From the NCBI GenBank assembly GCA_016933115.1, contig JAFGBL010000296.1, positions 1,170 through 65,169 on the forward strand: a stretch of 64,000 nt of DNA, read 5' to 3'. The translations under genes were made by a program, and so were the position numbers. The notes under the pieces were generated by a model, which was given only the letters and a program-made list of their open reading frames with translations, had not been told where the DNA came from and did not search any database. The stretch comes from Bacteroidales bacterium (lineage in GTDB: Bacteria; Bacteroidota; Bacteroidia; Bacteroidales; JAADJA01). Shown here piece by piece: positions 7,579-64,000 of this stretch; the first letter of the stretch is position 1; the number at the start of each line of letters is the position of its first letter.

Positions 7579-7592
7579 GTGTTTTCCGTTTT

Positions 7593-8183: not shown

Positions 8184-8202
8184 AATATTAAGTTTAAATT
8201 TC

Positions 8203-9689: not shown

Positions 9690-9705
9690 ATCAATAAATG
9701 ATGCA

Positions 9706-12485: not shown

Positions 12486-12514
12486 ACATCGAAATTTCTT
12501 TATATATAAAAAAG

Positions 12515-12522
12515 CAAATATA
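12515..12522 (-). promoter_or_regulatory. Candidate Bacteroidota -7 promoter box for the 7-gene sulfur operon
   Basis: Reads TATATTTG (TAnnTTTG) on the minus strand, 29 nt upstream of the psrA-like ATG. Confidence 0.4.
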
Positions 12523-12739
12523 TACTGCAGATACAACCTGTTTTTTAATTAACAATGGGAATTGCTCATTATAATTACTGTTCTATATCAGTTTTTTTTA
12601 CGTCAAATTGATGATAAACATTTTAAGTAACTGATAAAGAGTTTAATTTGGTGATTTTCTGCTTGAAAAAGTATAATTCTGAAAAAAACAAGTTACATTT
12701 TGGCAGATTATCTGAAATTTGTAAAACCAATTGTTTGAT

Positions 12740-42526: not shown

Positions 42527-43112
42527 ATCAAGGAGATTTTTCGGGTTGTTTTTCATTGTCCTGATGTTTCTGATTGTTGGTTCATGCAAACACGATTACT
42601 ATCCCAAACCCAGAGGATATTTCCGTATTGGACTCCCTGAAAAAAATTACATCCGGTTCGATACCAGCTATCCTTATTCTTTTGAATACCCTGATTATGC
42701 TAAAACTGTGGTTGATGATGATCCCAATACTGAATCTTATTGGATAAATATTGTTTTCCCGCAGTTCAAGGGGAAAATCCACATCAGCTATAAGAAGATC
42801 AACAATAACCTTGCTGAATACCTTGAAGATTCCCGAACACTGGTGTTGAAACACATTCCCAAAGCCAGTTCCATTGCCAATAAACAATATGAAAATCCCG
42901 AACAGAGAGTATTTGGATTGACCTACGATATTTCGGGAACCGAAGTTGCTTCTCCCTACCAATTTTATCTTACCGATAGCGTAAAAAATTTTATACGCGG
43001 CGCACTGTATTTTAAAACCGTCCCCAATAATGATTCCCTGGCCCCGGTAATAAAATTTATTGAAGCAGATATTAGCCACATGATTGAAACCTTCAAGTGG
43101 CGGGATAAATGA
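42495..43112 (+). CDS. gldD: Gliding motility lipoprotein GldD
   Basis: Lipobox LIVGSC followed by YPKPRGYFRIGLPEKNY. It overlaps the gldE 3' end. Confidence 0.75.
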   Translation: MLWTKMKIQIKSRRFFGLFFIVLMFLIVGSCKHDYYPKPRGYFRIGLPEKNYIRFDTSYPYSFEYPDYAKTVVDDDPNTESYWINIVFPQFKGKIHISYKKINNNLAEYLEDSRTLVLKHIPKASSIANKQYENPEQRVFGLTYDISGTEVASPYQFYLTDSVKNFIRGALYFKTVPNNDSLAPVIKFIEADISHMIETFKWRDK

Positions 43113-43138: not shown

Positions 43139-46087
43139 CTACTCTGGTATTTGCTGAGACTGATTTTGATTATTTAACCAAATATCATTTTTATCCTGAT
43201 TGTCAATTTCTCCATCAAGGTCATAATCGGCCTGTATATAACCTCTAAATCCTACCAGCAACTGCCATACCGATATTTTATCCTCATCGTTTATTGTTCT
43301 GCTGTTGTTGCCGTCACCGCCAACCATTCCAAAAACACCTCCGCCCAAATCCTTATGTGCCAATCCACCTTGATATGCCTGGTTAATTCCTGTCGTAAAA
43401 TTGTAGCTGTAAATATCTCCTGTTTTGGTTAACGGATAATTGGAAATTACACCAAGATGATTCCTGTGGTAAACTACAACGAAAAGATTATAATCGACCG
43501 ATAGCTCAAAATGCAATAATGAAGCACCATCCATATCTACCAAAGAGCCATCACTCAGGATGTAGCAGGCCCTCTTTATGATTGATGTGCCTGAAGTTGC
43601 CGAAGCTACATCGGACGCATCTCTTAACTCAATCAATACCCAGTCGACAATATCATCGTTGGGCAAAGATATTACGGACTCATCCCCGTAATAATACCAG
43701 GGGTAAGTATTAAAAGGTTGTACAAAAGGAAAATCAGCGATTCCGATGAGTTGCGTATTCATATCCTCCCCATTGTATGGGCCTTCGAGAAAAACTTTAA
43801 TTTGAAGATCAAATGCAGGGGGAGTTGATACTATTAGGTTTTGACCGGTACCATTGGTCCCTGGAGAACCCTTATCACTAAAACCCCCTGAATAGGAAGG
43901 CTCTCTCAAACTTGTTGTTGACCAAAATGTAAAATTGCTATTATCATCATTGGGGTTTCCTGTAAATATCATGGATGCTCCATTGGGATCGGGCCAGTTG
44001 GGTCCGCCATCGTATTCTATCCTGTCAACTTCGGTATCATCCGGCATGAGTAAAATTATTTCATCGTCCCCATTTGCAAGCTGAAAATTTATATAGGTAT
44101 ACTGGTAATTACATGTATAATTTCCATTTAATGCAGTATTAATATTTGAACCCAAAACGACAAATCCTTTTGACGGGACAATCAGGGAACCATTTATGGT
44201 GTGCGCATCAATGCCGTTATCTTTTATTTTCCAACCACTCAGGTCAATCGGATTATTGGCAGGATTAAAAATTTCGAACCACTCACCATCGGCATCGCCC
44301 ACAGCTAAAGGGTTTTGCATAATTTCCGTTATCATTAGATTCCCCTGCTCCTGTTGGGTAACAACAATATAATCCCGTATCAAATATTCGTTGGTTCCCT
44401 GACCGTTTGAAACGGATAAAATCACATCAAAAACACCCGGTGTATCATAAGTGATAACAGGATTTTGCAATGATGAACCTGACGGTGTTCCGCCTTCAAA
44501 TGCCCAGTTCCAGCTCGTTGGACTATTAACCGATAAATCTGTGAAACTTACAGTATCACCCATATAAATCTCTGTTGGGCTTGCTGAAAAAATCGCAATT
44601 GGTGGAAAATCACATTCGGTAAAACCAGGCGTTGCATAAATTGCCTCATTATCATTATTATAACCTGTAAGATTATTGGATACAGACCAATTACTCCCTT
44701 GAGCGTTATTATCCTGTGGATTACACAATATCAGTGATGGACCAAGGCCGTTAGCGGCAGTTGGCCAGGGAAATCCGGTTGAGTAATTCACTGAATCGAC
44801 TGTTTTTCCCGAGGGATCTTTTAATATAATTTGTTCACCTCCGTTACTCAAAGCACCACTTGTCCATTGAAGCGCACTAATCCCAAAAGTATTCACCATG
44901 GCATCAGCATTAACCGCCAAAACGATAAACTCTCCTGGGTTCAGGACGGAACCAGGAAATGTAAAATCAACCCCTGTCAAAGTATAACCGCCAAGATTTG
45001 CTGAAGTATGTCCGCCATTATAAACTTCAATGTATTCCAGTGAATCTGTTCCTCCCTCAGGAGGATTGTACATAATCTCAGTAATTACAAGTTTTGCAGT
45101 GGTCGTATCCTGAGTCGCTTCAACTCTGAAATCGGCAACAACTGGTAAGTGATCCGACATATAATACAAAGCGTAAGTCACTGAATCGGGTATATTCGGA
45201 TTTAAAGGCAAATCTATTAAGGCATCGTTAAAGTGATTACCATCGTTCCCAAAGGCAATACATGTATTTTCGATGTATTTCACTTTATTGGTGCCACTTA
45301 AAACATCTTCGGAAAACAAGATAAAATCAAATCGGTCGTCCAATCCACCCGTACTTCCACCTCCGAAATCCGTAGTTCTGGTGCTTTGTGTGTGGATGAA
45401 CCTATAATAGGTATTATTGTGCCAATCACCAGCAACTAATGGGTCGTCCAAGGGATAAATTCCATCATTTATCAATGCCAGGTAAGCAGGCTCATCGCTA
45501 TTATAGAGATTCAGGTCTCCGCCAAAAAAAATATTTTCCGCAATTGCTATACTGTTTATCCTCTCCTTGAAATTATTTACCTCCTCCAGTCGCTCTAGTT
45601 GAAATTCCTCTTCAGGATATGCCTTTAGATGCGCAGAATAGAAATAAAAAAAAGTCGTATCACCACCGGTAACAAGATCATCAGACCTATAATACAATAC
45701 ATATTCATTTATATGCCGTAAGGCAGTTGGGATGTACCATTGCGAGTGCAAAACCAATTTATCCCCATTATAAAACAACATATTATCCGTATCGGGCCCA
45801 TCCGTGAAATTGGCTTTTTGATAGTGGGTAGTGCCATATACATTCAAGGCATCATTTAATAAAGTAAATGCACCTACTTCACTTGTTAACTCATTGATTA
45901 ATATAACATCTGCTTTCAGGTATTGATTGATGGTGCGAAAATAATCATCCCGGTTAGGGTCACCTGCATCAGGATAGTTTAAGGTGTTATAATACATAAC
46001 CCTTAAAGTGTCGAATTGAGCCAATGCATATTTTGAAAAAAAAGCGGGTAAAACCGCAAGAAACAGAAATAAAATTTTGGATTTCAT
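43139..46087 (-). CDS. Secreted multidomain protein: endonuclease/exonuclease/phosphatase domain + 2 lamin-tail domains + PKD domain + C-terminal dockerin-like Ca-binding repeats (ExeM/NucH-like architecture)
   Basis: Signal peptide; EEP motifs (YYNTLNY..., SDHLPVVADF); LTDs (LVITEIMYNPPEGGTDSLEYIEVYN, LMITEIMQNP..GEWFEIFN); PKD (FSASPTEIYMGDTVSFTD...); and the tail DYDLDGEIDNQD. Confidence 0.75.
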   Translation of the reverse strand: MKSKILFLFLAVLPAFFSKYALAQFDTLRVMYYNTLNYPDAGDPNRDDYFRTINQYLKADVILINELTSEVGAFTLLNDALNVYGTTHYQKANFTDGPDTDNMLFYNGDKLVLHSQWYIPTALRHINEYVLYYRSDDLVTGGDTTFFYFYSAHLKAYPEEEFQLERLEEVNNFKERINSIAIAENIFFGGDLNLYNSDEPAYLALINDGIYPLDDPLVAGDWHNNTYYRFIHTQSTRTTDFGGGSTGGLDDRFDFILFSEDVLSGTNKVKYIENTCIAFGNDGNHFNDALIDLPLNPNIPDSVTYALYYMSDHLPVVADFRVEATQDTTTAKLVITEIMYNPPEGGTDSLEYIEVYNGGHTSANLGGYTLTGVDFTFPGSVLNPGEFIVLAVNADAMVNTFGISALQWTSGALSNGGEQIILKDPSGKTVDSVNYSTGFPWPTAANGLGPSLILCNPQDNNAQGSNWSVSNNLTGYNNDNEAIYATPGFTECDFPPIAIFSASPTEIYMGDTVSFTDLSVNSPTSWNWAFEGGTPSGSSLQNPVITYDTPGVFDVILSVSNGQGTNEYLIRDYIVVTQQEQGNLMITEIMQNPLAVGDADGEWFEIFNPANNPIDLSGWKIKDNGIDAHTINGSLIVPSKGFVVLGSNINTALNGNYTCNYQYTYINFQLANGDDEIILLMPDDTEVDRIEYDGGPNWPDPNGASMIFTGNPNDDNSNFTFWSTTSLREPSYSGGFSDKGSPGTNGTGQNLIVSTPPAFDLQIKVFLEGPYNGEDMNTQLIGIADFPFVQPFNTYPWYYYGDESVISLPNDDIVDWVLIELRDASDVASATSGTSIIKRACYILSDGSLVDMDGASLLHFELSVDYNLFVVVYHRNHLGVISNYPLTKTGDIYSYNFTTGINQAYQGGLAHKDLGGGVFGMVGGDGNNSRTINDEDKISVWQLLVGFRGYIQADYDLDGEIDNQDKNDIWLNNQNQSQQIPE

Positions 46088-46346: not shown

Positions 46347-46853
46347 TCATTCTAACTTGCAAACACATCCATCTATAAGGCTCAATACTATATCCTTGCT
46401 ATTGGAGTCAAAAAATCTAGTGTCACCCGTAATCCGCACACCATTTTGTATCACTTCTTCAGTACCCCAAATTAGATCAGTTACCCCACCTTTATAAATG
46501 AATTCAAGTTCACATAACTTTCCCATTTGTTCTTCAATATTACCTGTCGAATTTACACTAATGAATACAGCTGCAAAATATAGGCTTGTTACATTATCTT
46601 TCCATCCATTTTTGAAAACAGGATTCACATAAGAAGTTGACTTGTATTGTAATACTTTTTCGTCAAAACCAATATACATTTGGATAAGAGCCACAGGATC
46701 TGTTAATTCATCAATGAATACTGAAACCTTTACTATATCTCCTGGAGTAAAATCAGAACTGTTCATTTTATCGATGTGCAAAGTGGATATTTTCTGCGCA
46801 TCAACAAGAAAAAAAATAAACATAAGCCCAAATAATAGTGTAATCTTTTTCAT
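46347..46853 (-). CDS. Small secreted cohesin-like domain protein
   Basis: Signal peptide, then PGDIVKVSVFIDEL...ALIQMYIGFDEKVLQY, which resembles the cohesin beta-sandwich signature. Motif-level call only. Confidence 0.5.
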   Translation of the reverse strand: MKKITLLFGLMFIFFLVDAQKISTLHIDKMNSSDFTPGDIVKVSVFIDELTDPVALIQMYIGFDEKVLQYKSTSYVNPVFKNGWKDNVTSLYFAAVFISVNSTGNIEEQMGKLCELEFIYKGGVTDLIWGTEEVIQNGVRITGDTRFFDSNSKDIVLSLIDGCVCKLE

Positions 46854-46865
46854 TTTTATATAATA

Positions 46866-49800
46866 TTAATTGTTATTGCTCACTGGTTTCAATATCACCC
46901 CCACATTTTTCCTTCCGTCAATTCGCACTTCGACCGGATTATCAAATTGAATATGTTTCAAAAATTCATCTTCATAAACGGGTTCAAATTTACTTAAAAA
47001 ATTCAATTCATAATACCCATCATTGATATAAGGATTAATGGTAAAATATCCCACCCGGAATGATGTAAGATTTTGGAAAAAATGGGTCCCCTGGCTGGGG
47101 TCAATCCGGTAGTGTTCCAACCCTGACTCTACAATTACCCGGGCAAATGAAATCTGCGGCCATTTTACAGGTATACCCAACCAGGGATCTGTTGAACCCC
47201 AACGACCGGGGCCAACTAAAATATAATTCTTCTTTTCCCTGATAAATTTTTCATTCAATTTTCCAACCTGATGTGCTATTTCAGAATTTTTTGCCGGATC
47301 AAAACTTTCGGGCTTAACGTAAACAAAATCCCTTAAATTTTGAATAACTCCATTCCCTAAAGCCGATTGTGAATAAATGATTGTATCCTCTTTCTTTATT
47401 TTTTCGAGATCTACTAACATCGTTTCCCGGTTATCCACAATCGGGCGGATTTGCAACATATTAAAAATGCTTGGCTCATTCTTCTTTTTGCTCAGGTTAA
47501 CAGCAAATTCAATTTCCACCGGTTTATTCATTTCTTTCTGGCCTATTTTTAAGGCCATATCCAGTATATCAGCAAGTGGAAATACACCGTGCTGTAAAAT
47601 ATGGGTAAATGTAATCACCTTTTTACCTGGATATTGTACCCCATCTCTTAAAACCTCATTGTCAAAATCATAAGTTGAAGCTATTTGATTCAGCGACTGA
47701 TCTTTTTCCGCTTCATTTATTCTTAACTTCAATAAATTGGCACCATCGTCAAGTGATGGACTAAAACTTCCGGTATCGAGGTTCAAAGCATAGAAAATCC
47801 TTTGGGTTTCCCTCAATGCCATTTCAGGGGAAGTCAATTGAAGAATTTTTTTCGGATATTTTGGAGAAAAACGTAATGTCAACCCCCCATCAACGATATA
47901 TTTTCCCAAACCCAAAGCTACGCTTGCAATCCCGTCTTCAGGTTTTTCAGGCTCAATGGGATAAAAATTTATTGAACGTGCTACACCTGAAAACGTCGGG
48001 TAAAACCTGTTGCCATAACGGTTGCCACATACTTCCTGTAAGACGATCGCCATTTTTTCCTCGTCGATCACATTGGCTGTGGCAGACATATAAGCCTTGC
48101 TATCCCTGAAAAAAGCAGATGCATAAACACTCTTGACTGCATCCGAAAGCATTTCGATCATTTTCCGTTCATCATCCTGAATATTCGGAATCATGTAAGT
48201 GGAGTAAATACCAGCAAAGGGCTGGTAATGGGAATCTTCGAGCAAACTGGAAGACCGCACGGCGATAGGGTTCCTGATAACAGAAATAAAGGTGTACAAA
48301 TCTTCATGAATCCTGAATGGCAGCCGGGCAGCTACAAAGTGATCCAGGATTTGCTGGTCGGATAACTGTTCTGACAAAGCAATCCGATAGAGGTCATTTT
48401 CCTCCATAAACTCATCAAATACGTCGGTGCACAGCACTACGGTTTTAGGAATGGTCACAATCACGTCTTTATATCTGTCGAGTATTTTGTTCCGCATGAT
48501 CAGGGAATCCAGAAAAGCCAATCCTCTTGCCTTTCCACCAATCGATCCTTCACCAATACGGGTAAAAGTGAAATATTCGTCAAAACTTTCACGGTAAAAC
48601 TCGGCAATAACTCCCCTGGCCTTGTTCATCCTGAAGCTGGCGATCGCATCAAACATGAATTTTCTTACTTCATCCAGGTTTTTGAAATCCTGAAACCTCA
48701 AATCCCTGATCAAATCAGCGAGTGGAAATAATGCCCTGGCCCTGAACCATTTTGAAAAGTGATTCCTCGTAATATGGTATTCCAATGATTCATCGGGGAT
48801 CCGGAACAGGATTTCCTGGAATGACTTCAGATCGGCTGCCCGCATGATTTCCTTTCCGGTTTCAGGATTGATAAATACGAAATCGCCAAACGCAAAAAAT
48901 TCGAAAATAAAATTTCGCAATTCCAGCGATAGGGTTTTCGAGTGCTTATTGATAAATCCGACCCTTGTTTCTTTGGCCAGTTCTTCGCTTTCGGCATCCG
49001 ACGACTGCAACAGCAAAGGCATGAAACGATCATCTTTTTTAATATGCTGGCAAAGCTTGATCCCGGCTGTTTTATCCATATCACCATCCCGTTGATAGCT
49101 TAAATCCGTGATCACGCCCAGCATGTAATGCTTATATTTTTCGTAAAAATCAATTGCCTCTTCAAACGTTGTGGCGAGTAAAATTTTTGGCCTCCCGCGC
49201 ATCCTGAGCATTTTTTGGTGCTCGTTCAATCCTTCAGTCATGAATTTTAATGACTGCTTGAAAATGATTTTATAAATATTGGGAAGATAGCTTGAGTAAA
49301 ACCGGATGGAATCCTCTACCAGCAAAATTACCTGGACACCAACCTCTTTCACATCATGCTCAACATTCATTTTATCTTCTATCAGTTTAATGATCGCCAG
49401 AAGAATATCGGCATTACCCAGCCAACTGAAAATATAATCAATAGCGCTCAGGTCATCCTGGTTCAATTTTAAAGTAACTTTTCTCGAAAAGGGGGTCAAA
49501 ACAACAAATGGCTTGGATGGATATTTTATCTTAATTTGTTTGGCCAGGTCAAAAGTATCGGCTTCTTCAGCACTTAACATGGTAATGACCAAATCTATTG
49601 ATTCTTCCGATAATTTTTGAATTGCCTCTTCAGCCGAATTAGCAAGGATAAATTGCGGAGGATATCTCAGGTTAAGGGACACATATTCATTAAAGATCTG
49701 CTCATCAATCCTTCCGTCATCTTCAAGCATGAAGGCATCATAGGCGCTGGAGATCAGCAATACGTGATAAATCCTCTTTTTCATGAGGGTACTGAAGGAT

Positions 49801-49886
49801 GTATCGCTGAAATAGTATTTCGGAGCTTTGAGTGGGTTGGGCCTTTCCATTTGTCTATCATTCATTATTAAATTCACCAATTGCAA
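46866..49886 (-). CDS. Receiver-domain protein fused to a PEP/pyruvate-binding (PPDK_N ATP-grasp-like) domain
   Basis: Two receiver-like modules, the second with LLVEDS...GVITDL, then GEGSIGGKARGLAFLDSL and a long conserved C-terminal region. 1006 aa. Confidence 0.7.
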   Translation of the reverse strand: MQLVNLIMNDRQMERPNPLKAPKYYFSDTSFSTLMKKRIYHVLLISSAYDAFMLEDDGRIDEQIFNEYVSLNLRYPPQFILANSAEEAIQKLSEESIDLVITMLSAEEADTFDLAKQIKIKYPSKPFVVLTPFSRKVTLKLNQDDLSAIDYIFSWLGNADILLAIIKLIEDKMNVEHDVKEVGVQVILLVEDSIRFYSSYLPNIYKIIFKQSLKFMTEGLNEHQKMLRMRGRPKILLATTFEEAIDFYEKYKHYMLGVITDLSYQRDGDMDKTAGIKLCQHIKKDDRFMPLLLQSSDAESEELAKETRVGFINKHSKTLSLELRNFIFEFFAFGDFVFINPETGKEIMRAADLKSFQEILFRIPDESLEYHITRNHFSKWFRARALFPLADLIRDLRFQDFKNLDEVRKFMFDAIASFRMNKARGVIAEFYRESFDEYFTFTRIGEGSIGGKARGLAFLDSLIMRNKILDRYKDVIVTIPKTVVLCTDVFDEFMEENDLYRIALSEQLSDQQILDHFVAARLPFRIHEDLYTFISVIRNPIAVRSSSLLEDSHYQPFAGIYSTYMIPNIQDDERKMIEMLSDAVKSVYASAFFRDSKAYMSATANVIDEEKMAIVLQEVCGNRYGNRFYPTFSGVARSINFYPIEPEKPEDGIASVALGLGKYIVDGGLTLRFSPKYPKKILQLTSPEMALRETQRIFYALNLDTGSFSPSLDDGANLLKLRINEAEKDQSLNQIASTYDFDNEVLRDGVQYPGKKVITFTHILQHGVFPLADILDMALKIGQKEMNKPVEIEFAVNLSKKKNEPSIFNMLQIRPIVDNRETMLVDLEKIKKEDTIIYSQSALGNGVIQNLRDFVYVKPESFDPAKNSEIAHQVGKLNEKFIREKKNYILVGPGRWGSTDPWLGIPVKWPQISFARVIVESGLEHYRIDPSQGTHFFQNLTSFRVGYFTINPYINDGYYELNFLSKFEPVYEDEFLKHIQFDNPVEVRIDGRKNVGVILKPVSNNN

Positions 49887-54885: not shown

Positions 54886-55347
54886 CTAATATCCGTAAGC
54901 CTTTCCCTCAAACTTCTCCACCACCACCTTAAAAACATTGACATCCTTCACTGCCGGTGCATTATAACTGAACTCCCTATCCGTATACTGGCTCATAATG
55001 ACATTTAATGCATCTACCTTCTGATCATAATCTTCTATGAAAACAACCTTCCCAAAAGCCACAACACTTCTGTATTTCATGCCATAGCTGCAGGCTACCT
55101 TTTCGCTTTGCCAACGCAGTTCATGATCGGTACTGAAAGCAACACAAACCTGGTTGTTCTTTTGCAAAATATCTATTTTCTTGCCTGTCTGTGCTGAATG
55201 TAGAAATATTTCACCTGATTTATATCCGAAATTCATAGGAATCACATAAGGATTTCCCGATGTATCAACCATACCCATGTAACAAGCATCACACTTTTTG
55301 ATGACCCGATCAATTTCTTCCTGAAGATGAAGAATTCTGCTTTTCAT
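54886..55347 (-). CDS. Pyridoxamine 5'-phosphate oxidase-family flavoprotein (NimA/Pyridox_ox_2-like)
   Basis: A 153-aa protein with CYMGMVDTSGNPYVIPMNFGY...IFLHSA..GKK, typical of the split-barrel FMN-binding fold. Confidence 0.7.
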   Translation of the reverse strand: MKSRILHLQEEIDRVIKKCDACYMGMVDTSGNPYVIPMNFGYKSGEIFLHSAQTGKKIDILQKNNQVCVAFSTDHELRWQSEKVACSYGMKYRSVVAFGKVVFIEDYDQKVDALNVIMSQYTDREFSYNAPAVKDVNVFKVVVEKFEGKAYGY

Positions 55348-55697
55348 GATTTGGATGGTTTATCGGTTGCGGCAATTCCAAGCAAATAAGATATGACTGA
55401 CAATATGATACTAAATAGCAATGCCCACCAAAAGCCGTCCACATAAAAACCGGGAACCATGCTGGAAGCCAGTAAAATTATTATCGCATTGATGACAAGC
55501 AGGAACAGGCCCAATGTGAGGATGGTGATGGGAATGGTAAGAATGACAAGTATAGGTTTTAATATACCGTTTAATATTGCAAGTATAACGGCAACGATTA
55601 TTGCCGATAAAAAATCACGGATATGTACACCCGGTAAAATATAGGTTGTCATAATGACCGCCAATGCCGACAGTAATATTCGTAAAATAATATTCAT
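55344..55697 (-). CDS. DUF360/phage-holin-4-like small membrane protein (YvlD-like)
   Basis: A 117-aa protein with 4 TM segments and LNGILKPILVILTIPITILTLGLFLLVINA. There is a 4-nt overlap with the downstream gene. Confidence 0.7.
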   Translation of the reverse strand: MNIILRILLSALAVIMTTYILPGVHIRDFLSAIIVAVILAILNGILKPILVILTIPITILTLGLFLLVINAIIILLASSMVPGFYVDGFWWALLFSIILSVISYLLGIAATDKPSKS

Positions 55698-55781: not shown

Positions 55782-56006
55782 TTAATCGAGCACTTTTTTG
55801 CGTGCTTCATAGATTTTCTTGGAACCGTATCCGATTGCCAGTGACAACAGGATCAATAGTCCGCCACCAATGGGTGCTCCACCACCTACAGGGTATGCAC
55901 CTTCTCCGCCATTCCATGCCGGATCCCAGGGTTGTGGCTGTGCTGACAGTATAACCGGAACCAAGATTACAAATGCGATTGCTAATATCTGAATTACTTT
56001 TTTCAT
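55782..56006 (-). CDS. 74-aa mini-protein: signal peptide + Pro/Gly-rich spacer + hydrophobic helix + basic tail
   Basis: MKKVIQILAIAFVILVPVILSAQ | PQPWDPAWNGGEGAYPVGGGAPIGGG | LLILLSLAIGYG | SKKIYEARKKVLD. Confidence 0.55.
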   Translation of the reverse strand: MKKVIQILAIAFVILVPVILSAQPQPWDPAWNGGEGAYPVGGGAPIGGGLLILLSLAIGYGSKKIYEARKKVLD

Positions 56007-56050
56007 ATCTTGTAATTTTTTGATTTCTAAATTATTGAACTACACATTTA

Positions 56051-58234
56051 CTACTTGATAAATACTTTTCCGGTCTTGGCATTGCTTTCGGTTACAACCT
56101 GAACAATATAATAAGTATTTACATCATTAACCGGAAGTGTATTCAGACCCGGATCAGCATCTTTGCTGGTTACTTCCTGTCCCATCATGTTGTATACAAC
56201 AATGGTTCCGGTATTCGGTACAACAACATTAACCTGATTGTCGCTTGCCCAGATACGGATGCTATTGGCTTCGTATTCGATGGTTCCCAATGGAGTAAAG
56301 TGTACCATAAAAGGATGTACTTCGTTAACATCTGAATATTCAAATGTATATGAACCTGAGAGTAAGTCAGTTTGTTCATAGGTAACTAAATCCTCAAGTA
56401 CTACATTTTCGAATGTGCCGGTTTCAATTGCTTCAATGGTATAGGTTCCTGCTGTTCCACAGCTGAATGACATGGGTACCATATCAACTGCCGGTTGGGT
56501 ATTCAATGCAAGTTCTAATCCTTCGCTCATTGTCCAGATTTGAGGAGTTGCATCAATTCCAGCATACAATTTATTAGCATCCCATTCCTTATCCAAACCA
56601 GGTGTTGAAACATCATTGAACCTGATATAAGTGAAGTCAGCATTTGTACGTCCTTCAACAGTTACCTGCAATTTCAGGAAATCAGATGCATCTTTCCACC
56701 ACCACTGGAATGGATCATGAATACGTTCTCCTCCAACTCCGGTAGTTCCTAAAAAGTTCAAATTATCAGATGCAGAAGCCTCTACAAAGAATCCTTGTGC
56801 AGGTGGAATATTAAGTCCACTTCCAACAAATCCGAGTACCCAGGTACTTGATGACCAGCCGTCCCACATATAAACGGTATTGGTAGTCAAACCAGCAGGA
56901 TAAGCAATGAAATCAGGATTTATAGCACTTGGATATGGATTACCTGCAAGGTTCCATCCCGGGAACAGTGCAAAAGGACCTTGTGGGCCACTGTTGAAGG
57001 AAGTTCCAATCATATTGATCACCGGATCAACCGGAACAGCACAATATGCCGGAAATAATTGATCATGTTTAATACTCCAGCCTTCCATCAAACCATTTGC
57101 AACTGGTGGTGCAGGAACACACGGCACAGCACCAACAACCGGGCTATATAACTGTGCAATAGGATCCCATCTGTTAAGATAGAATTGGATCAAATCATTC
57201 GAAGTAAATTCACCTGCCGGTAATGGCGATGAAATAAAATGCCATCCAACCTGGCTTCCTAATGGAGTTGAGTTTGTGATGTCGCGCTGGAATTCAAAAA
57301 TACCTGTTCCTGAAACGCCCATCATGTCAATGAATGAACCTGATTCACCACCGCCTGGAACTGCTATTCCATTACTTGCGATAACGAATGTTCCGTCATT
57401 CTGGAATGTTCCATTAACAGTCAAGTCTGACATATCGGCAATTGTCAGTGAACCACCCGAAATTAACAGGTTAGTTACAGTTGCACTTCCTGACAATATA
57501 CACGGTCCTGCTTTGGTACCCGGGAACTCTACATTGTCAGCCTCTGTAGGTACACCTACCGGAAGCCAGTTTGTAGCTGTGAACCAATCGGTCTCAAAAC
57601 CGGGTGTTCCACCTACCCACATGTAGTCAATGCCACCGCCGGTTGTTATATCAATAGTTGTTAATACATAAAAAACACCAACTGCCGGTGGAGGAGGAGC
57701 TGACATTTCCGTTTCAACGGATAACAACTTCCCACCTGCTAAACCACCCGGTGCCGGTTCCAGTACCGGATTGTCATTTTGCCAGGTGATCTCAATATCA
57801 CCACCCAGATAGGTAAATTTCAAGTCAAAGAATTTAAACGGTGTTACACCACTTTCAAATCCGTAAAAACTCGGATCAAATCCGTAAGCGGCACCGGTTC
57901 CGAAGAATATGCGCAAATCACCGGCTGCCGGTACGTTACTGCTTGGCAGTGATCCGTAGTCAATAAACATCTGGCTATGATTGTGATACCACCTGTTGAA
58001 CGGAGGGCCTGTGCTCACTGCAGTTAATACAGCGGGATCATAGTTAAACCCAAAAATGGCACTCCAGATCGTTGGATCAACTGGCCAAACCAGTTCATCC
58101 AGGTAAACACCTACCAAGAACTGCTCTCCAATCGCTGGTGGAGTGGCAGGCATTTGAAGCCTTAGTGTGGCCGTTTGACCAAATACAATACTCATGCTTA
58201 TGGCCATGGCGAAAATTAAAATAAATTTTTTCAT
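56051..58234 (-). CDS. Secreted protein with N-terminal cohesin-like domain and C-terminal T9SS (Por) sorting domain
   Basis: Signal peptide MKKFILIFAMAISMSIVFGQ; IGEQFLVGVYLDEL...AIFGFNYDPAVLTAV; and the C-terminus ...IVVYNMMGQEVTSK...YYIVQVVTESNAKTGKVFIK, typical of a type A CTD. Confidence 0.7.
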   Translation of the reverse strand: MKKFILIFAMAISMSIVFGQTATLRLQMPATPPAIGEQFLVGVYLDELVWPVDPTIWSAIFGFNYDPAVLTAVSTGPPFNRWYHNHSQMFIDYGSLPSSNVPAAGDLRIFFGTGAAYGFDPSFYGFESGVTPFKFFDLKFTYLGGDIEITWQNDNPVLEPAPGGLAGGKLLSVETEMSAPPPPAVGVFYVLTTIDITTGGGIDYMWVGGTPGFETDWFTATNWLPVGVPTEADNVEFPGTKAGPCILSGSATVTNLLISGGSLTIADMSDLTVNGTFQNDGTFVIASNGIAVPGGGESGSFIDMMGVSGTGIFEFQRDITNSTPLGSQVGWHFISSPLPAGEFTSNDLIQFYLNRWDPIAQLYSPVVGAVPCVPAPPVANGLMEGWSIKHDQLFPAYCAVPVDPVINMIGTSFNSGPQGPFALFPGWNLAGNPYPSAINPDFIAYPAGLTTNTVYMWDGWSSSTWVLGFVGSGLNIPPAQGFFVEASASDNLNFLGTTGVGGERIHDPFQWWWKDASDFLKLQVTVEGRTNADFTYIRFNDVSTPGLDKEWDANKLYAGIDATPQIWTMSEGLELALNTQPAVDMVPMSFSCGTAGTYTIEAIETGTFENVVLEDLVTYEQTDLLSGSYTFEYSDVNEVHPFMVHFTPLGTIEYEANSIRIWASDNQVNVVVPNTGTIVVYNMMGQEVTSKDADPGLNTLPVNDVNTYYIVQVVTESNAKTGKVFIK

Positions 58235-58313
58235 CTGTTTTAATTTTTTGTTATACATTTTATTTAATAAATTCAATTTTTTATTTTTCTAATTCTTAAG
58301 TCAATAATTTCGA

Positions 58314-59345
58314 TTACTGCCAGCTACCTGTAGTATCGCCCGACTGAATACCTTCGAAATCTAACGTACCGATGCCATTGACAACATTAACCGTATGCTG
58401 TTCAAATCTCCAGCCCGGTACAGCCGGGTATCCGCTAAGCGAACCAACCAGGTTACCTACCATCAGGTTATAATCTCCAAGGCTAACGAGACCGTCTCCA
58501 GTAACTTCGCCTGCCAGAAAATACAATCCGGTCAGTGGTGAACCTAATAAATGGCTGACTTCAACATTCACATCACCCAGTGTAGTTACATAGGTATAGG
58601 GCAAGGAACTGGTTGTTGTCAGGATATACATACCATCGTCTATGCCACTGAAATTATAAAATCCGTTAACATCGGTCAAAGCTGTACCAATGGAACCACC
58701 ATCAACCGTACAACTGCTCAATGGCGTTGGATTTGAAATATTGGCATAGGTGATTGTGCCGTACAGCGTGCTCAACTTCAACGTTGAAATAGCGCCTTCG
58801 TATAAAGAAGGATCAGTATATTTCACAGGCTCAACCAGAGAAGTAGACTGGTAGTACTGGCCACCATTCATCAGTGCCTGGTCAAAAGCAATACCGCACA
58901 TTTGGGTATTCATTCCGGGCATAATGTCGATGGTAAATCGTAAGAGTCCTTGAAAGGAGGTGGTTACTTCCTCGTAATAAGTTGATGAACCAACCTCGTC
59001 CATTTCCTCATAAGCCTCGGTAATGACGGCAAATTTGGAAGCGGTATTGTCGGCAGCATTCACAACAAAATACTTGGAAGCATTCATCAGCGTAAGAGGT
59101 GTGTAACTGATCGCACCGTTTGTTACAATATCTGTTCCGAATGCAGTGGTGTTGTAATCGAAATAGACCTGTAAGTCGCGGTGAAATGTACCAGCTGCAC
59201 TGGCCTTTACCTCAACATCGAACTGAAGCTGGGTTCCGGCATTGATTACCTTGTAATTGGCAAATTGCCAAGTTAACGTAGGTTGCGCAGTTACGAACAA
59301 ACTTGTAAAAGTCAGTAATGCGAAGAATGTAAGGAACTTTTTCAT
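58314..59345 (-). CDS. Secreted protein: cohesin-like N-domain + CarboxypepD_reg-like domain + dockerin-like repeat
   Basis: Signal peptide; GTQLQFDVEVKAS...LQVYFDYNTTAFG; TDVNGFYNFSGIDDGMYIL; and GDVNVEVSHLLGSPLTGLYFLAGEVTGDGLVSLGDYNLMVGNLVG. Confidence 0.6.
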   Translation of the reverse strand: MKKFLTFFALLTFTSLFVTAQPTLTWQFANYKVINAGTQLQFDVEVKASAAGTFHRDLQVYFDYNTTAFGTDIVTNGAISYTPLTLMNASKYFVVNAADNTASKFAVITEAYEEMDEVGSSTYYEEVTTSFQGLLRFTIDIMPGMNTQMCGIAFDQALMNGGQYYQSTSLVEPVKYTDPSLYEGAISTLKLSTLYGTITYANISNPTPLSSCTVDGGSIGTALTDVNGFYNFSGIDDGMYILTTTSSLPYTYVTTLGDVNVEVSHLLGSPLTGLYFLAGEVTGDGLVSLGDYNLMVGNLVGSLSGYPAVPGWRFEQHTVNVVNGIGTLDFEGIQSGDTTGSWQ

Positions 59346-59401
59346 CTTTATTTATTTAATTGAATATTTAATTTTACTCTTGGTTCATCGATTAATAATT
59401 G

Positions 59402-59409
59402 CAAATGTA
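59402..59409 (-). promoter_or_regulatory. Candidate -7 box for the 343-aa/741-aa/74-aa unit
   Basis: Reads TACATTTG on the minus strand, 56 nt upstream of ATG 59345. Confidence 0.35.
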
Positions 59410-59457
59410 ACATCTTCGCAAATAATATCCAAATTATTTTACTGTTAATTTTTTGTT

Positions 59458-59495
59458 AAGGATAACACCACCCAATCATAAGCGGTGTTATCCTT
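59458..59495 (-). terminator. Hairpin 13 nt after the stop of the 1492-aa gene
   Basis: A 12-bp perfect stem aaggataacacc/ggtgttatcctt with a 14-nt loop. There is no clear U-tract on the minus strand. Confidence 0.5.
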
Positions 59496-59508
59496 ATAAA
59501 TCATCAAT

Positions 59509-62500
59509 TTATTGAACATTCACCGAATAATCATGTACCTCGCCATAAGAGTTATTTCCGCATGGCAAAGGAGTTTCTGTATAATTCAGCCTAATTCTCA
59601 TTCTTGTCATACCAGTTAAAGCACCTGCAGGAGGAGTGATCGTGCCATTAAATGTTGCATAATCAACCGTAGTAGTTGTAAAAGTTTCACCGGCATCGTC
59701 AAAATCGGCATCCTGATTCCAGTCAACCCAAACAGTTACCTGGTCTCCGGTATAAATTGTTCCATTTACTACAGTTATAGGATATCCTACTCCTATTGTC
59801 ATATTTGTGCTAACAGCCGTATAATCATGATAAGTAGCACCATCGGGTGAATAAGGTCCTGCTGCAATGGTTCCTACATCAACGGTTACAATATATTCAT
59901 CTTCCAATCCTGATCCGGCTGTACAATATGTACCAGAGGGAGTGTCTTCACAAGTAACTGTAAAATAGTAGTCATCCCAATTTGCAGTAGCACCGAAATC
60001 AGGTCCCATGAAAATCCAGTAAACTCCGGGTGCTAAACCGACAGCTGTCATACTACCAACTTCACAAGGTTGTGCAAGATATCCTGTCTCCAAAACAATT
60101 GCTGCACAGTTTCCGGATAAAATGTATCCCTGGATAAGGAACTCGCCTTCAAATTCAACAGTTACATTCTGATTAACAGCAGCTCCCGTAAGATCCAGTT
60201 CGTACCAATCGGTATCGCGGTAAGAACTGCCACTATACAAATAAAATCCAGCGGTACCGCAAACGGTTTCACCACAAGTTACCGAACCAAACACATTGGG
60301 CGTACTGTTACATCCGCCGTTGGTAACATCTTCACCATCATCAGGGATCGGAGCTTCTCCTTCGGCAGTGCTGCCCGGAGGACAGGTTACGGAACATGGT
60401 GCAACTTCAGAAATAGTCAATTCATAATCGCCTGTACTGGAGCTATAACCGTTAACCAGAACGAAATAATCAACACCAGCAGTTGAAACAAATTGAAGAC
60501 CTGATTGCAATCCGCAATAATCATCATTTCCACCTACGCAAACCAGGGCGTCGCAAGCGCCTGAGAAAATATGCAATTTGGTATCCCAGGTTGTATTGGT
60601 ACAAAGGTCAACCACCAATTCGGCGCCGGTACCGGTAAATGTCCACCATTCGCCGGGAGCCGTAATCGAGTAATCACAGAATGGCAAACTACTCCAGATT
60701 AAGCCGTCAGCAGTGTTTCCGGTTACGGAAGTTGGAAGGGTTGATATGTCAATAAAAGGAGCATTATCGCATACCAATCCAGCGGCTGCCGGAGGTACCA
60801 GGTAGTCACCACTTGGATCACCTGAAGAAATTGCTTCAAAATTTTGCGTTTCTTCTCCGGGAGGTACTGGCAGAACCACAGTGAGATCTTCGCCAAAGAA
60901 CCAGTCGGGTGAAGTAAACGCTATATTACCCAACAATGCACTAACAAGCAGGTTGTAATCTGCCAAACCAACATCACCGCTTGCATCAACATCGGCAGCC
61001 AGGAATGGAAGTCCTGTAAGCGGATTTCCAAGCAGGTGTGACACGATCAGGTTAACATCGGCCAGGTTTTCACCACCTCTGGGCTTGATTGTAGAAGCAC
61101 CCAAAGTATAGGTTCCGGCTGGTATACCGGTAAACTGGTAATTTCCAGAACCATCTGTTATAGTTGAAGCAATAATGGCATCTGCACCGTCATCCAAAGT
61201 AACATTAATATAATCCATAGGTATGCCATTATTATAATAGGTAACAGTTCCGTCAAGATCATAGGTCGGGGCAGCGGAATTTATTGTTAAATCAAATGCA
61301 GGGATACAGGTGGGTGATGGCCATGTATCAATCATAATATAATATGTACCGGCTGTTAAAGACAATCCTGTGAAACCATGAGGAGTAGAACCGCTCATAG
61401 TACTGAATGCAATACATGCAGCACCCGGAGGGCATGTTTCATCAATCAGAATCCCGGTCCATGTTGTTCCCAAAGGATCGAGCAATATGTCAACGATTAC
61501 ATCTGATGTTACGGTCAATTCATAAATGATATCTTCACCGCCGTCATAAGAACCAAGGCAGGTTTCGGTATAATCATTGATCATGCCGCAAGTGGTCTGG
61601 CCTGCATCAAGATATGGTAAATCTGCAGGTAAAGTGATCAACAAAGGATCAGCACAGGTAGCGCCCTGCGGGATACTGAATTCAGTAACATCAAAGGTAG
61701 CTACAAAATCTTGTAACGGAAGCTGATAAACAGGTATCCTTATTGTTCCCGGACCGGGTACATCAAACCAATCCATCCGGCCTACGGTTACTCCACCGGG
61801 AGTTCCGCAATCGTAGAATTCATAGAAATCAGCAATAACATATGCGTTACAATCTGAACAATCAGGATAGTAAACAATACCTATAGTAGCTTGATCAGGT
61901 GTGCCACAATAATCTAAACTAACGCTATTAGAAGCATAAGGTAAATCAAGTTCATACCATACTGCTTCCCAATCGAGTACTCCGGGGCAGTCAATGGTAG
62001 CGCCCAATGTTGTACCTAAAACAGTTTCCGGATATCCGGAACCACCAACTAAGATAGCATTAACACATTCGTCATTGGCAGGCACAGGATACCAGACAAA
62101 AGGAGCTGATTTAGCCCAGATACTTAAATCTTTGGTACCGCAATCGGAACGTACTGCCCATTCATAAGATACTGCAGCAGACAAGCCGGTAAGCGTGTAC
62201 TGATAAGGAGGACCAAACGGGAATGAAACGCCATAAGCTGTTCCTGTGAACGGGCCGGTATCAGGATCAAAACCTGTCTCTCCCCATACAATATCATAAA
62301 GTCCGGCACTATTGGCATCAGACCAGCTTGCCAGCGCTGTAGTGCCAGTTAAATTACTGGTCATTAAAGCTGTTGGCGGAGGACATGCCGGAGGTGTGCA
62401 CCATCCTGGCAATCCGGTTGTTCCGGTTGGATTGGGTCCATCACTGAATTGAAGGCCACCGAAGTTGTCATATATTTCATAGGTAACCTCACTGTCCCAA

Positions 62501-63987
62501 CTTCCTGGATTCCATACAATGTCAATAGTACAAGGATCCAGAATAGGGAAAAAGTAGCTTTCGGGCCCGGTTGTAGCGGGGCCTGCCCAGTTTCCAACCA
62601 ATCCACCATCAACATAAAAATCAATAGAACCAAGGTTCCAGCCATCACCGTATGAATCATAGCCTACACATTCCCACATACAATCGCCACCGGTTGTGCC
62701 GAATGTGTTGGGAGCACTCCAACCTGAATAGGAACCGCTGCCGCAATCGGCACGTACCTTCCAATGGTAGGAGGTTAAAGTGGTCAGGCCTGTCATGGTA
62801 TAGGGATTTAAGGTAATTCCGGTATGCGTTGGAGTTCCTGTGAAAGGAACGGAAGCTTCACGTAATTCAATTTCCCATGTAGTAGAAGTGCCTGTTTCGG
62901 TCCATCCCAGGTCGGCTTGTGTGTCCATAATATTGGTTGCACTAAGGCTAACCGGCGTAGAGCATGGATTGGGAGGGCCCAGTTCAACTGCCCACATGGA
63001 GGTATTTTGGGTAATTCCAAAAAGTGACCATTCAGTCGGAAAACCCGGGAATGTACCCGGAGGTGTTATAGCCAAACCACCGGCAATAGTACCGACATGT
63101 CCTAAAGCAGTACCTACATCATAAGCCACGCCTGTTTCAACACCGGTTACTGCGTCCATTTGCACCAACCACTCAAGACTTACATCAATCTGAGCATAAC
63201 CCCAGACAAATGGTCCACCTGTTGAATAATCATCATAGGCGAGTCCATAGTAACTTGCACCAGTTGGGCCAACCGGAAAACTATACTGCAAAGCACCAGT
63301 CAGATCAAAAAAGGTGATAGCGGTTGACCAGTTATTTCCAAAAAGCAAGTTATTGTCATGGTCACAACCAATAGCCCGTATGGCTGTGGGAGCTATAATC
63401 GTACTTACCAGGGCTTCAGAACCCGGGGTAAAGTCCATTTCCCAAACAGTAGTAGTGGCAGCCGCGCCATAAAAATATCCAGTGTTAGGGTTATAAGCCA
63501 TATCCCTTATCAATGAAGTACCTGCTATTGTAAAGGTAGCGAGATAATTACCCGACATATCGTAACGGTAGTAATTACCATTCTGCCAGTGGCAGAGATA
63601 AATGTAATTACCATCCGTTTCAATACCAACACTTAAACCATCAGGATGAGTTAAGGGATATTCAAACTGAAGATCAAATAAGAAATCTGATGGAGGTGCA
63701 GGAGAACCCGATTTAGGGTCCATTTCCGTAGCTACCGATGATTTCATCTGCTTCTGTTGTGTCACTTTTTCAAGTTCAACATCCTTGAAAGTTGCACTGA
63801 CACTCAGGGCAGGACTTTCAATTTTTTGAACATCTTTCTTTACATCAATTTGTTGCTGAATGCCGGCATTCTGCATCTTTTTCTCCAGCATTTTAGCATC
63901 CAATTGCTTGTAATTCGACACATTTTTTTGTGCCTGTACAAAAATAACACTGATGGAGAACACAATCGTCATCATCATCAGTAACAA
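59509..63987 (-). CDS. Giant secreted surface protein: N-terminal propeller-like region, two FN3-like domains, several Cys-rich modules, CarboxypepD_reg + dockerin-like module, C-terminal GEVED domain
   Basis: Signal peptide ...VIFVQAQ; FN3-like LSATNIMDTQADLGWTE... and LTGTTALASWSD...; AADVDASGDVGLADYNLLVSALLG; and the terminal VWVDWNQDADFDD...GEVHDYSVNVQ. The frame stays open (KFTR) to the window edge, so the true start may lie beyond 64000. Confidence 0.7.
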   Translation of the reverse strand: MLLMMMTIVFSISVIFVQAQKNVSNYKQLDAKMLEKKMQNAGIQQQIDVKKDVQKIESPALSVSATFKDVELEKVTQQKQMKSSVATEMDPKSGSPAPPSDFLFDLQFEYPLTHPDGLSVGIETDGNYIYLCHWQNGNYYRYDMSGNYLATFTIAGTSLIRDMAYNPNTGYFYGAAATTTVWEMDFTPGSEALVSTIIAPTAIRAIGCDHDNNLLFGNNWSTAITFFDLTGALQYSFPVGPTGASYYGLAYDDYSTGGPFVWGYAQIDVSLEWLVQMDAVTGVETGVAYDVGTALGHVGTIAGGLAITPPGTFPGFPTEWSLFGITQNTSMWAVELGPPNPCSTPVSLSATNIMDTQADLGWTETGTSTTWEIELREASVPFTGTPTHTGITLNPYTMTGLTTLTSYHWKVRADCGSGSYSGWSAPNTFGTTGGDCMWECVGYDSYGDGWNLGSIDFYVDGGLVGNWAGPATTGPESYFFPILDPCTIDIVWNPGSWDSEVTYEIYDNFGGLQFSDGPNPTGTTGLPGWCTPPACPPPTALMTSNLTGTTALASWSDANSAGLYDIVWGETGFDPDTGPFTGTAYGVSFPFGPPYQYTLTGLSAAVSYEWAVRSDCGTKDLSIWAKSAPFVWYPVPANDECVNAILVGGSGYPETVLGTTLGATIDCPGVLDWEAVWYELDLPYASNSVSLDYCGTPDQATIGIVYYPDCSDCNAYVIADFYEFYDCGTPGGVTVGRMDWFDVPGPGTIRIPVYQLPLQDFVATFDVTEFSIPQGATCADPLLITLPADLPYLDAGQTTCGMINDYTETCLGSYDGGEDIIYELTVTSDVIVDILLDPLGTTWTGILIDETCPPGAACIAFSTMSGSTPHGFTGLSLTAGTYYIMIDTWPSPTCIPAFDLTINSAAPTYDLDGTVTYYNNGIPMDYINVTLDDGADAIIASTITDGSGNYQFTGIPAGTYTLGASTIKPRGGENLADVNLIVSHLLGNPLTGLPFLAADVDASGDVGLADYNLLVSALLGNIAFTSPDWFFGEDLTVVLPVPPGEETQNFEAISSGDPSGDYLVPPAAAGLVCDNAPFIDISTLPTSVTGNTADGLIWSSLPFCDYSITAPGEWWTFTGTGAELVVDLCTNTTWDTKLHIFSGACDALVCVGGNDDYCGLQSGLQFVSTAGVDYFVLVNGYSSSTGDYELTISEVAPCSVTCPPGSTAEGEAPIPDDGEDVTNGGCNSTPNVFGSVTCGETVCGTAGFYLYSGSSYRDTDWYELDLTGAAVNQNVTVEFEGEFLIQGYILSGNCAAIVLETGYLAQPCEVGSMTAVGLAPGVYWIFMGPDFGATANWDDYYFTVTCEDTPSGTYCTAGSGLEDEYIVTVDVGTIAAGPYSPDGATYHDYTAVSTNMTIGVGYPITVVNGTIYTGDQVTVWVDWNQDADFDDAGETFTTTTVDYATFNGTITPPAGALTGMTRMRIRLNYTETPLPCGNNSYGEVHDYSVNVQ

Positions 63988-64000
63988 TCTAGTAAACTTT

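Follow-up and report, generated by a model that had tools for sequence, protein, structure and literature searches.

A cassette of four genes on a 64,000-nucleotide stretch of DNA from a Bacteroidales bacterium (contig JAFGBL010000296.1, assembly GCA_016933115.1; hereafter the window) is probably a conserved Bacteroidales system for the non-enzymatic, plug-in display of proteins at the cell surface through cohesin-dockerin pairing. In the mechanism that we propose, the 741-residue protein p741 would be the socket, exported by Sec and then by type IX secretion (through the T9SS), via a type A C-terminal domain (CTD), to the cell surface; its body and CTD correspond to the C-terminal ~550 residues of the adhesin RemA, with a single cohesin replacing the RemA lectin head. 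The plugs would be p1492 and p343, each of which bears an X-dockerin-tail module whose dockerin is predicted to recognise the cohesin of p741 as well as p168, a free cohesin. Interchangeable passengers would thereby be displayed on the RemA-like base one at a time, with a specificity that differs between lineages as dockerin and cohesin change together. In this scheme p343 is most likely a second passenger whose conserved N-domain would bind a conserved ligand, and the mini-protein p74 would be an obligate neighbour of the anchor.

The cassette consists of four open reading frames (ORFs) arranged head to tail on the minus strand at 55782-63987, with intergenic gaps of 44-163 bp. All four are predicted to be secreted, just as an earlier note on this DNA had described them; each has a signal peptidase I (SPI) type signal peptide. 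The p343 sequence is identical to the NCBI entry 'hypothetical protein JW731_17040 [Bacteroidales bacterium]'. The features of the cassette are as follows.

59509-63987, minus strand: p1492, 1492-aa giant adhesin-like passenger, assigned with Pfam and a hidden Markov model (HMM) of the p343 module; signal peptide, propeller-like N-terminal region, fn3 domain (aa 344-426), several jelly-roll-like repeats, X-dockerin-tail (aa ~911-1062), C-terminal GEVED domain (aa 1417-1490), without a T9SS CTD
60802-61257, minus strand: X-dockerin-tail module of p1492, dockerin proper at ~60928-61077
58314-59345, minus strand: p343; signal peptide, N-domain of cohesin-like fold, X-dockerin-tail
58776-59282, minus strand: conserved p343 N-domain of cohesin-like fold (aa 22-190)
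58317-58775, minus strand: p343 X-dockerin-tail (aa 191-343), dockerin at ~58434-58595
56051-58276, minus strand: p741, T9SS-sorted anchor with signal peptide; the NCBI start is M15 (727 aa)
57629-58177, minus strand: N-terminal cohesin of p741 (aa ~35-216)
56297-57619, minus strand: RemA-like body of p741 (aa ~220-660)
56054-56281, minus strand: type A T9SS CTD of p741 (aa ~666-741)
55782-56006, minus strand: p74; signal peptide, ~25-aa Gly/Pro-rich stretch, PID-CTERM-like sorting domain
55809-55874, minus strand: PID-CTERM-like domain of p74 (aa 45-66); PIGGG, transmembrane helix, basic tail

The anchor carries a cohesin on a RemA-like body

From family profiles and a predicted structure, we identify the N-domain of p741 as a cohesin with the nine-stranded jelly-roll fold, which bears out the cohesin-like assignment first made from the letters of the sequence. 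The window copy alone finds no match in Pfam. An alignment of 14 p741-type N-domains (A3) matches solved cohesins (3l8q_A, E 2.3e-8; 1g1k_A, 1.3e-6; 2vn5_A, 3e-6), and PF00963 is matched by 7 of its 14 members, the best with E 1.8e-9. The subfamily of the window domain, which has an insertion of ~25 residues, aligns with the classical subfamily in hhalign at 98.3% probability (E 2.4e-14). An AlphaFold2 (AF2) model of the domain (pLDDT 74, pTM 0.73) places the insertion, at low confidence, at domain aa 59-83; when this model is compared with the PDB by Foldseek, all of the top 50 matches are cohesins (E down to 5.6e-6, TM score 0.5-0.66), the first of them type II cohesins. Type II cohesins pair with dockerins fused to an X module (XDoc).

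The opposite end of p741 had been called a canonical T9SS sorting domain, and this holds as well: although the score against TIGR04183 falls just below the cut-off (22.4 vs 23 bits; 14.8 bits for PF18962), NCBI names the protein 'T9SS type A sorting domain-containing protein', more distant homologues pass PF18962, and the family profile A2 aligns through the CTDs of RemA and RemZ to their last residues. RemZ is a type A substrate that was seen bound in the SprA-PorV translocon, where its conserved Lys1110 of 1114 contacts PorV (PMC10994853). K737 of p741 is nearly invariant in the family and lies four residues from the end, the same offset as that of RemZ Lys1110.

The homology extends well beyond the CTD. 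A2 matches Flavobacterium johnsoniae RemA (8gl6_D) with E 3.5e-26 over profile positions 194-297 and 420-716, which fall on RemA 885-993 and 1093-1434 and together span ~885-1436 with the CTD included, and it matches RemZ with E 1.2e-18; the window sequence of p741 alone finds neither RemA nor RemZ. On this profile evidence, p741 is best described as a RemA-like body that bears a cohesin and ends in a T9SS CTD.

p1492 and p343 share an X-dockerin-tail module

We find that p343 and p1492 have in common a 150-aa composite module, which combines a CarboxypepD_reg-like 'X' sandwich with a dockerin and a beta tail. When an HMM is built from the final 150 residues of p343, it matches p1492 at aa ~911-1062 with E 5e-35, so the two are the same module, and the dockerin-like segment that the earlier note had placed inside p1492 and again in p343 is thus recovered in both. 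p1492 lacks a T9SS CTD, also as stated there, neither it nor p343 having a Por_Secre_tail or CHU_C match at E≤1.

The dockerin itself is recognised through its family. The p343 module alone has no Dockerin_1 match in Pfam, the isolated p1492 module reaches a sub-threshold 14.3 bits against Dockerin_1 (PF00404; cut-off, 22.9), and p343 alone finds a dockerin as its best match among PDB sequences with E 0.18. The p343 family comprises 153 matches at 45-100% identity, ~20 of them with a precomputed PF00404; many module homologues carry PF00404, and NCBI names one homologue a 'dockerin type I domain-containing protein'. A profile built from 42 sequences of the p343 family (A1) matches solved dockerins over profile positions 249-304, led by 8x39_A (E 1.8e-7) and followed by 4uyp_B, 2ccl_B and 1ohz_B at ~2-4e-3, then 5nrk_B and others; many cellulosomal dockerins score at ~1e-3 to 1e-2. 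In the ScaA XDoc of A. cellulolyticus (4wi0_B, 4u3s_B), the same profile covers the X module as well as the dockerin, and the AF2 model of p343 (pLDDT 91.8) has three helices in the dockerin segment, as dockerins do.

In an alignment of 22 X-dockerin-tail modules (A5), the second Ca2+ loop is complete (EVTGDGLVSLGD in p343, DVDASGDVGLAD in p1492), the first is reduced to 'GGxxxxD' family-wide, and the beta tail ends in an invariant GD within 'SGDxNGSY'. Helix segments of dockerin repeats 1 and 2 share 62% identity when they come from one module, against 22% when they come from different ones (n=22), as illustrated by the helices ENLADVNLIVSHLL and VGLADYNLLVSALL of p1492, which match at 9 of 14 positions; by its sequence, this internal two-fold symmetry is typical of working dockerins. 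The two dockerins of the window are 58% identical.

At the C-terminal ends of both window modules (58317-58340 and 60802-60830), the GD of 'SGDxNGSY' resembles the missing first half of the truncated 'GGxxxxD' loop. The dockerin may sit within the sandwich of beta strands, and two segments far apart in the sequence may together form one EF-hand loop.

The cassette order is conserved across Bacteroidales

Related loci were gathered by genomic-context look-ups and two collection scans and mapped with purpose-built HMMs. At least 17 distinct loci from Bacteroidales metagenomes show the same order: one to three genes for large variable X-dockerin-tail proteins are followed by a p343-like gene, a p741-like gene, a gene for a protein of 72-76 aa and often a gene for a single-cohesin protein of ~187 aa. 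The p343-like gene is always between passengers and anchor. Flanking genes vary (SecA and ABC in L003, SpoU and PorP_SprF/CHU_C in L005, PNPOx elsewhere), so the conserved order does not just reflect shared ancestry of a larger region.

The passengers are the variable part. In related loci they carry fn3, Beta_helix, CARDB, MAM, Ig_7 and GEVED domains, and a T9SS CTD (type A or B) or a carbohydrate-active enzyme (CAZyme) domain was found in none of the passengers of L001-L007. In p1492, Pfam recognises fn3, CarboxypepD_reg and the C-terminal GEVED domain, the last of which the earlier note had listed for checking, and a PDB sequence search with p1492 returns fn3 only. GEVED has been defined as a stalk domain of fibrillar adhesins (PMC10952558). 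Neither the cassette nor the other window ORFs scanned have a recognisable CAZyme or carbohydrate-binding module (CBM) domain, in agreement with the initial claim of an assembly free of carbohydrate-active enzymes. A search with the X-dockerin module profile returned mostly short fragments and did not reveal a wider passenger repertoire.

One locus, L021 (8906-14665), has the whole cassette split into many short ORFs by frameshifts, which are either pseudogenisation or long-read assembly errors. A p343-like gene or a member of its N-domain family is also found in L017, L019, L026 and L036, in metagenome-assembled genomes (MAGs) labelled Chlorobiota and Thermoplasmatota, with the full cassette only in L017 and L019; these labels are probably binning errors, since all other carriers are Bacteroidales or Bacteroidota.

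Dockerins co-vary with the anchor cohesin

We compared pairwise identity matrices across loci by Mantel tests and find that dockerin and anchor cohesin co-vary as binding partners would, which we regard as the main new support for their predicted pairing. Dockerins of different genes are on average 82% identical within a locus (n=26) and 33% identical between loci (n=470). The dockerin matrix correlates with that of the p741 cohesin (r=0.74 over 14 loci, 0.72 over 12 and 0.63 over 17; p≤0.0002) and hardly at all with that of the RemA-like body (r ~0.1), and the p741 cohesin does not follow the body to which it is fused (r ~-0.1). Conserved parts of the cassette, namely the p343 N-domain, body, CTD and p74, correlate among themselves (r 0.5-0.86). 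The p741 cohesin is tracked by passenger dockerins encoded kilobases upstream (r=0.68), and a correlation with the dockerin is also seen for the small free cohesin (r=0.78, 8 loci). The groups {W, L001, L013} and {L011, L015} are each concordant in dockerin and cohesin type, whereas the conserved parts place their members apart.

Several observations weigh against pairing. The co-variation is weaker by rank, with a Spearman coefficient of 0.39 over 17 loci; the largest dockerin cluster has rather divergent cohesins; and the loci are related and not phylogenetically independent. The p343 dockerin is encoded next to the p741 cohesin, such that joint recombination could contribute to their correlation, although as a sole cause we reject it: upstream passenger dockerins and the small cohesin, which lies downstream or 9 kb away, co-vary, and the intervening conserved segments do not. 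At the level of the modules, the first Ca2+ loop is truncated throughout the family, and identification of the window modules rests on family profiles and predicted folds, their own scores lying below Pfam and NCBIfam cut-offs. A single cohesin serving at least two passengers implies competition between them, and there is no known route by which p343 and p1492, with SPI signals only, would cross the outer membrane to a surface cohesin.

The sub-threshold scores and the degenerate first loop would also fit a simpler account, in which nothing docks and the cohesin- and dockerin-like modules are structural or ligand-binding (glycan, Ca2+) parts of independent adhesins that share an operon; modules of both kinds are common outside cellulosomes, and for the majority no pairing has ever been demonstrated (Peer et al. 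2009, as cited in PMC8542988). We consider this very unlikely. Different genes of one locus have dockerins that have been made alike, each dockerin keeps its internal two-fold symmetry, and the co-variation of dockerins with cohesins does not depend on the remainder of the cassette, a combination that is hard to explain without a shared, co-evolving partner. The domain identities and the comparative patterns are well supported by these sequence data, and the socket-and-plug pairing is a prediction from them.

A conserved N-domain argues against p343 as an adaptor

The cohesin-like nature attributed to the N-domain of p343 finds some support in the predicted fold and none in the sequence. The domain has no match in Pfam, profile positions 1-190 of A1 have none among PDB sequences, and hhalign comparison with cohesin alignments gives a probability below 1%. 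In the AF2 model of whole p343, the best single-domain structural matches to the N-domain are cohesins, with target-normalised TM scores (TMt) of 0.60-0.67 (6kge_A and 6kgf_C, 0.65-0.67 at a root-mean-square deviation of 4.1; 2jh2_C, 0.62; 2vn6_A, 0.60); CBM3c also matches, and the top E-values belong to multi-domain pilins. We therefore reject the domain as a cohesin by homology and file it as a separate family of predicted cohesin-like fold. This family has 260 representative clusters and no Pfam model, and at least seven paralogous loci of it occur in one MAG, Zod_Metabat.457.

The distribution of the family is that of a binding module, and in this sense it does behave like one. A p343-type N-domain replaces the cohesin at the N terminus of RemA-like anchors in L019 and L033-L035, and two to four copies occur in proteins of 1.3-1.7 kaa, interleaved with up to seven CarboxypepD_reg repeats. 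A T9SS CTD ends two of the four large multi-copy proteins examined (P0240, P0245) as well as one single-copy protein of 587 aa. Judged by this architecture, the multi-copy proteins look like scaffoldin-type proteins. The observations on the family cover P0238-P0245 and the loci L027 (8372-13354), L031 (9911-14860), L028, L029 and L051-L053.

These properties bear on the three-tier hierarchy of anchor, adaptor and cargo put forward in the earlier note, in which the p343 dockerin would bind p741 and the p343 N-domain would in turn bind the dockerin of p1492. Its outer tiers survive here as a T9SS-sorted cohesin protein and CTD-less dockerin proteins; its middle tier we find distinctly unlikely. 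p343 does combine a cohesin-like fold with a dockerin, its gene always lies in the order passengers-p343-anchor, and its N-domain can stand in for a cohesin on RemA-like anchors and be repeated in T9SS-CTD proteins as cohesins are in scaffoldins. Yet the dockerins of p343 and p1492 are of the same type and both track the p741 cohesin, and if both fit p741, nothing forces p1492 to go through p343. The N-domain, without sequence homology to cohesins, is also strongly conserved (mean 63% identity, with many invariant residues) while dockerins diverge to 33%, and the two correlate weakly (r 0.21-0.42), which makes it unlikely that the domain reads the variable face of the dockerin.

Passengers lack a CTD

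SPI-type signal peptides ending in A/G-Q are found on p1492, p343, p741, p74 and p168, the free cohesin encoded at 46347-46853, and predicted cleavage exposes Gln in each; no lipobox was found in any of the five. A Gln exposed after cleavage is the Bacteroidetes Q-rule (PMC5837995). p343, p1492 and p168 carry the Sec signal and neither CTD nor lipobox, and in a diderm such proteins would be periplasmic unless something carries them out. How CTD-less proteins with signal peptides would cross the outer membrane was left unaddressed by the earlier note. In place of a CTD, p1492 ends in its GEVED domain and p343 in the X-dockerin tail, and passengers elsewhere have the same two types of end; the X-dockerin module is the sole feature common to all CTD-less passengers. 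We considered the X-dockerin-tail, which is C-terminal in many passengers, as a new C-terminal signal for the T9SS and judge this unlikely, given that in p1492 it lies 430 residues from the end.

A different place for the proposed pairing is the periplasm, where cohesin and dockerin would load CTD-less passengers onto p741 for joint passage through the T9SS, with p168 as a periplasmic holder. Such hitchhiking has in its favour that every passenger in all loci has an SPI signal without a type A or B CTD or lipobox and shares the X-dockerin module and nothing else with the others. The free cohesin is likewise devoid of anchor and CTD, and the T9SS moves folded substrates through the large SprA pore (PMC10994853). 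A 1492-aa passenger together with its carrier would nonetheless be a very large object to move, our literature search found no precedent for T9SS co-export or hitchhiking, and the present data do not bear on protein location. We rate periplasmic loading as unlikely, somewhat less so than an adaptor role for p343, and note that it extends the socket-and-plug explanation instead of replacing it.

Whether by hitchhiking or by capture outside the cell, giant CTD-less adhesins loaded on a RemA-like T9SS substrate would amount to an adhesin with an exchangeable head, possibly motor-driven and with a specificity that diversifies between lineages, and the p343 N-domain would, alongside this, be a hitherto unrecognised cohesin-like family that builds multi-socket, T9SS-anchored scaffolds across Bacteroidota. 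We offer this wider picture as speculation that has a modest chance of being right.

The p74 mini-protein and the genes at 43-47 kb

The 74-aa product at the end of the cassette, previously described as an anchor-like peptide, is on sequence grounds probably a mini-protein of the PID-CTERM type and not an evident anchor. Its sorting domain is tripartite, with PIGGG or PIDGG followed by LLILLSLAIGYG and then KKIYxxRKKVLD, and is preceded by the Gly/Pro-rich ~25-mer, PxPWDP..GGG..PVGGGAP. The window copy scores 23.1 bits against NCBIfam PID-CTERM (NF046080; cut-off, 26 bits), and 17 of 17 orthologues match NF046080 at E≤0.01, the best with E 7.2e-8. p74 is the most conserved component of the cassette (mean 72% identity), and its gene directly follows that of the RemA-like anchor wherever a locus reaches beyond the latter; orthologues of 72-76 aa are present in L001-L019, L021, L025, L033-L035, L044 and L045. 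A literature search on PID-CTERM found no paper.

Two further pieces of the system had been proposed at 43-47 kb. These and their neighbour are as follows.

46347-46853, minus strand: p168, free single cohesin with signal peptide, without an anchor
43139-46087, minus strand: p982, secreted protein with Exo_endo_phos nuclease-like, two lamin-tail (LTD) and PKD domains (Pfam); membership in the system is a candidate only
42495-43112, plus strand: GldD gliding-motility lipoprotein (Pfam GldD_lipo, E 8.7e-68), given as context only

The first piece is substantiated and the second is not. p168 passes the gathering threshold of Pfam Cohesin (PF00963) with 27.2 vs 24.1 bits and is matched by the p741 N-domain profile with E 7e-17; in most related loci its counterpart directly follows the p74 gene. 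For p982, searches of the C terminus for a dockerin are null in Pfam, in PDB sequences and with the family dockerin HMM; an EF-hand-like pair of loops (DGNNSRTINDED, DYDLDGEIDNQD) can be seen there by eye and is in no dockerin model's matches. We do not count p982 as a member of the cassette system. Its gene adjoins that of the free cohesin.

Relation to known systems

One close parallel is the anchoring of clostridial and ruminococcal cellulosomes (SdbA; A. cellulolyticus ScaB), where a cohesin likewise sits on a surface-anchored protein, its partner likewise joins a dockerin to an X module of Ig-like or prealbumin-like type, and the cohesins are type II, as are the best structural matches of the p741 N-domain; a lineage-specific dockerin type with internal two-fold symmetry is also common to both. 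The differences are substantial. Here the host is a Gram-negative Bacteroidales bacterium, and a T9SS CTD on a RemA-like body replaces the S-layer homology (SLH) or sortase attachment of cellulosomes; passengers have no recognisable catalytic domains or CBMs and no known means of crossing the outer membrane; and the dockerin has a truncated first Ca2+ loop and an additional conserved beta tail ending in GDxNGS. Each cohesin protein of the window has one cohesin, and a multi-cohesin scaffoldin that integrates dockerin-bearing CAZymes, the defining feature of a cellulosome, is found neither among these proteins nor among the ORFs scanned. The description 'cellulosome-style' was, in this respect, overstated.

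A second parallel is Ca. Stygibacter (Cloacimonadota), for which an in-silico study predicts a cellulosome-like complex with enzyme passengers and a cohesin scaffoldin that carries a T9SS-type CTD (PMC8542988). Both systems belong to the FCB (Fibrobacterota-Chlorobiota-Bacteroidota) group, are known from in-silico inference, and combine a T9SS-type CTD on the cohesin protein with dockerin partners that have signal peptides. In Stygibacter, the scaffoldin is 3755 aa long and has cohesins in tandem together with CBM2/CBM3, and the dockerin proteins are enzymes, namely GH18, GH57 and peptidases (PMC8542988); here we find a single cohesin on a RemA-like base, adhesin-like passengers, and a tight, conserved cassette with a PID-CTERM mini-protein and dockerin-cohesin co-variation.

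RemA and RemZ of F. johnsoniae, mobile gliding adhesins and type A T9SS substrates, are homologous to p741 in body and CTD, including the Lys four residues from the C terminus. RemA carries its own lectin-type head and long repeats, as reported in reference 28 of PMC10994853. p741 has only a cohesin at the head position, and a binding head would accordingly come in trans. That p741 moves along the cell surface is no more than conjecture, to which gldD in the window is the only pointer.

Clostridium perfringens toxin complexes contain cohesin-dockerin pairs outside cellulose degradation, and cohesin-like modules 2jh2 and 2vo8 from this species are among our structural matches. Cohesin and dockerin modules outside cellulosomes have been catalogued more broadly (Peer et al. 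2009, as cited in PMC8542988). The present cassette departs from these in its organism, its anchoring route and its passengers. A full-text literature search found neither an account of the cassette or the co-variation nor one of a RemA-like base that bears a cohesin.

Should the pairing prove true, the cohesin-dockerin principle would reach the outer-membrane surface of Gram-negative Bacteroidota and would serve adhesion, not enzyme assembly. A RemA-type T9SS adhesin that can receive its head in trans would alter the view of such adhesins and possibly of gliding adhesion, and would raise the question of whether CTD-less proteins ride the T9SS on a CTD-bearing partner. The lineage-specific types would be naturally orthogonal plug-and-socket pairs for surface display in Bacteroidota. 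The cassette, the p343 N-domain family and the PID-CTERM mini-protein are common in Bacteroidales MAGs from anaerobic sediments and digesters, and the latter two are annotated in databases only as 'hypothetical protein'.

Other genes of the window

By homology, the GldD gene shows that the genome carries gliding or T9SS-associated machinery; other than gldD, no exosortase or T9SS component was found near the cassette among the ~40 window ORFs scanned. A promoter and terminator scan of 55.3-64 kb, in which sites are no more frequent than in shuffled sequence, is uninformative; promoters of Bacteroidota differ from the sigma-70 type.

The next gene downstream of the cassette (55344-55697, minus strand) encodes a membrane protein of the Phage_holin_4_2 family (117-118 aa), and a PNPOx-like gene comes after it; the same pair is downstream in L002 (14298-14654) and L006 (14294-14650). 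A protein of ~1000 aa encoded at 46866-49886 (minus strand) joins a response-regulator receiver to a PPDK_N domain (phosphoenolpyruvate-utilising, ATP-binding), and a receiver-PPDK_N protein is also found near the cassette, within ~6-10 kb, in L001 (17604-20585), L002 (19942-21056) and L006 (19797-21095).

At the far end of the window, a polysulfide/thiosulfate-reductase-like operon (6299-12536, minus strand) encodes a molybdopterin oxidoreductase, a 4Fe-4S subunit and NrfD; after it come two genes for sulphur transport and two for rhodaneses, a combination that points to an anaerobic, sulphur-respiring lifestyle. Beside it, at 13173-15992 on the plus strand, a 939-aa protein combines multihaem cytochrome c motifs with a cytochrome b-like membrane domain at its N terminus.

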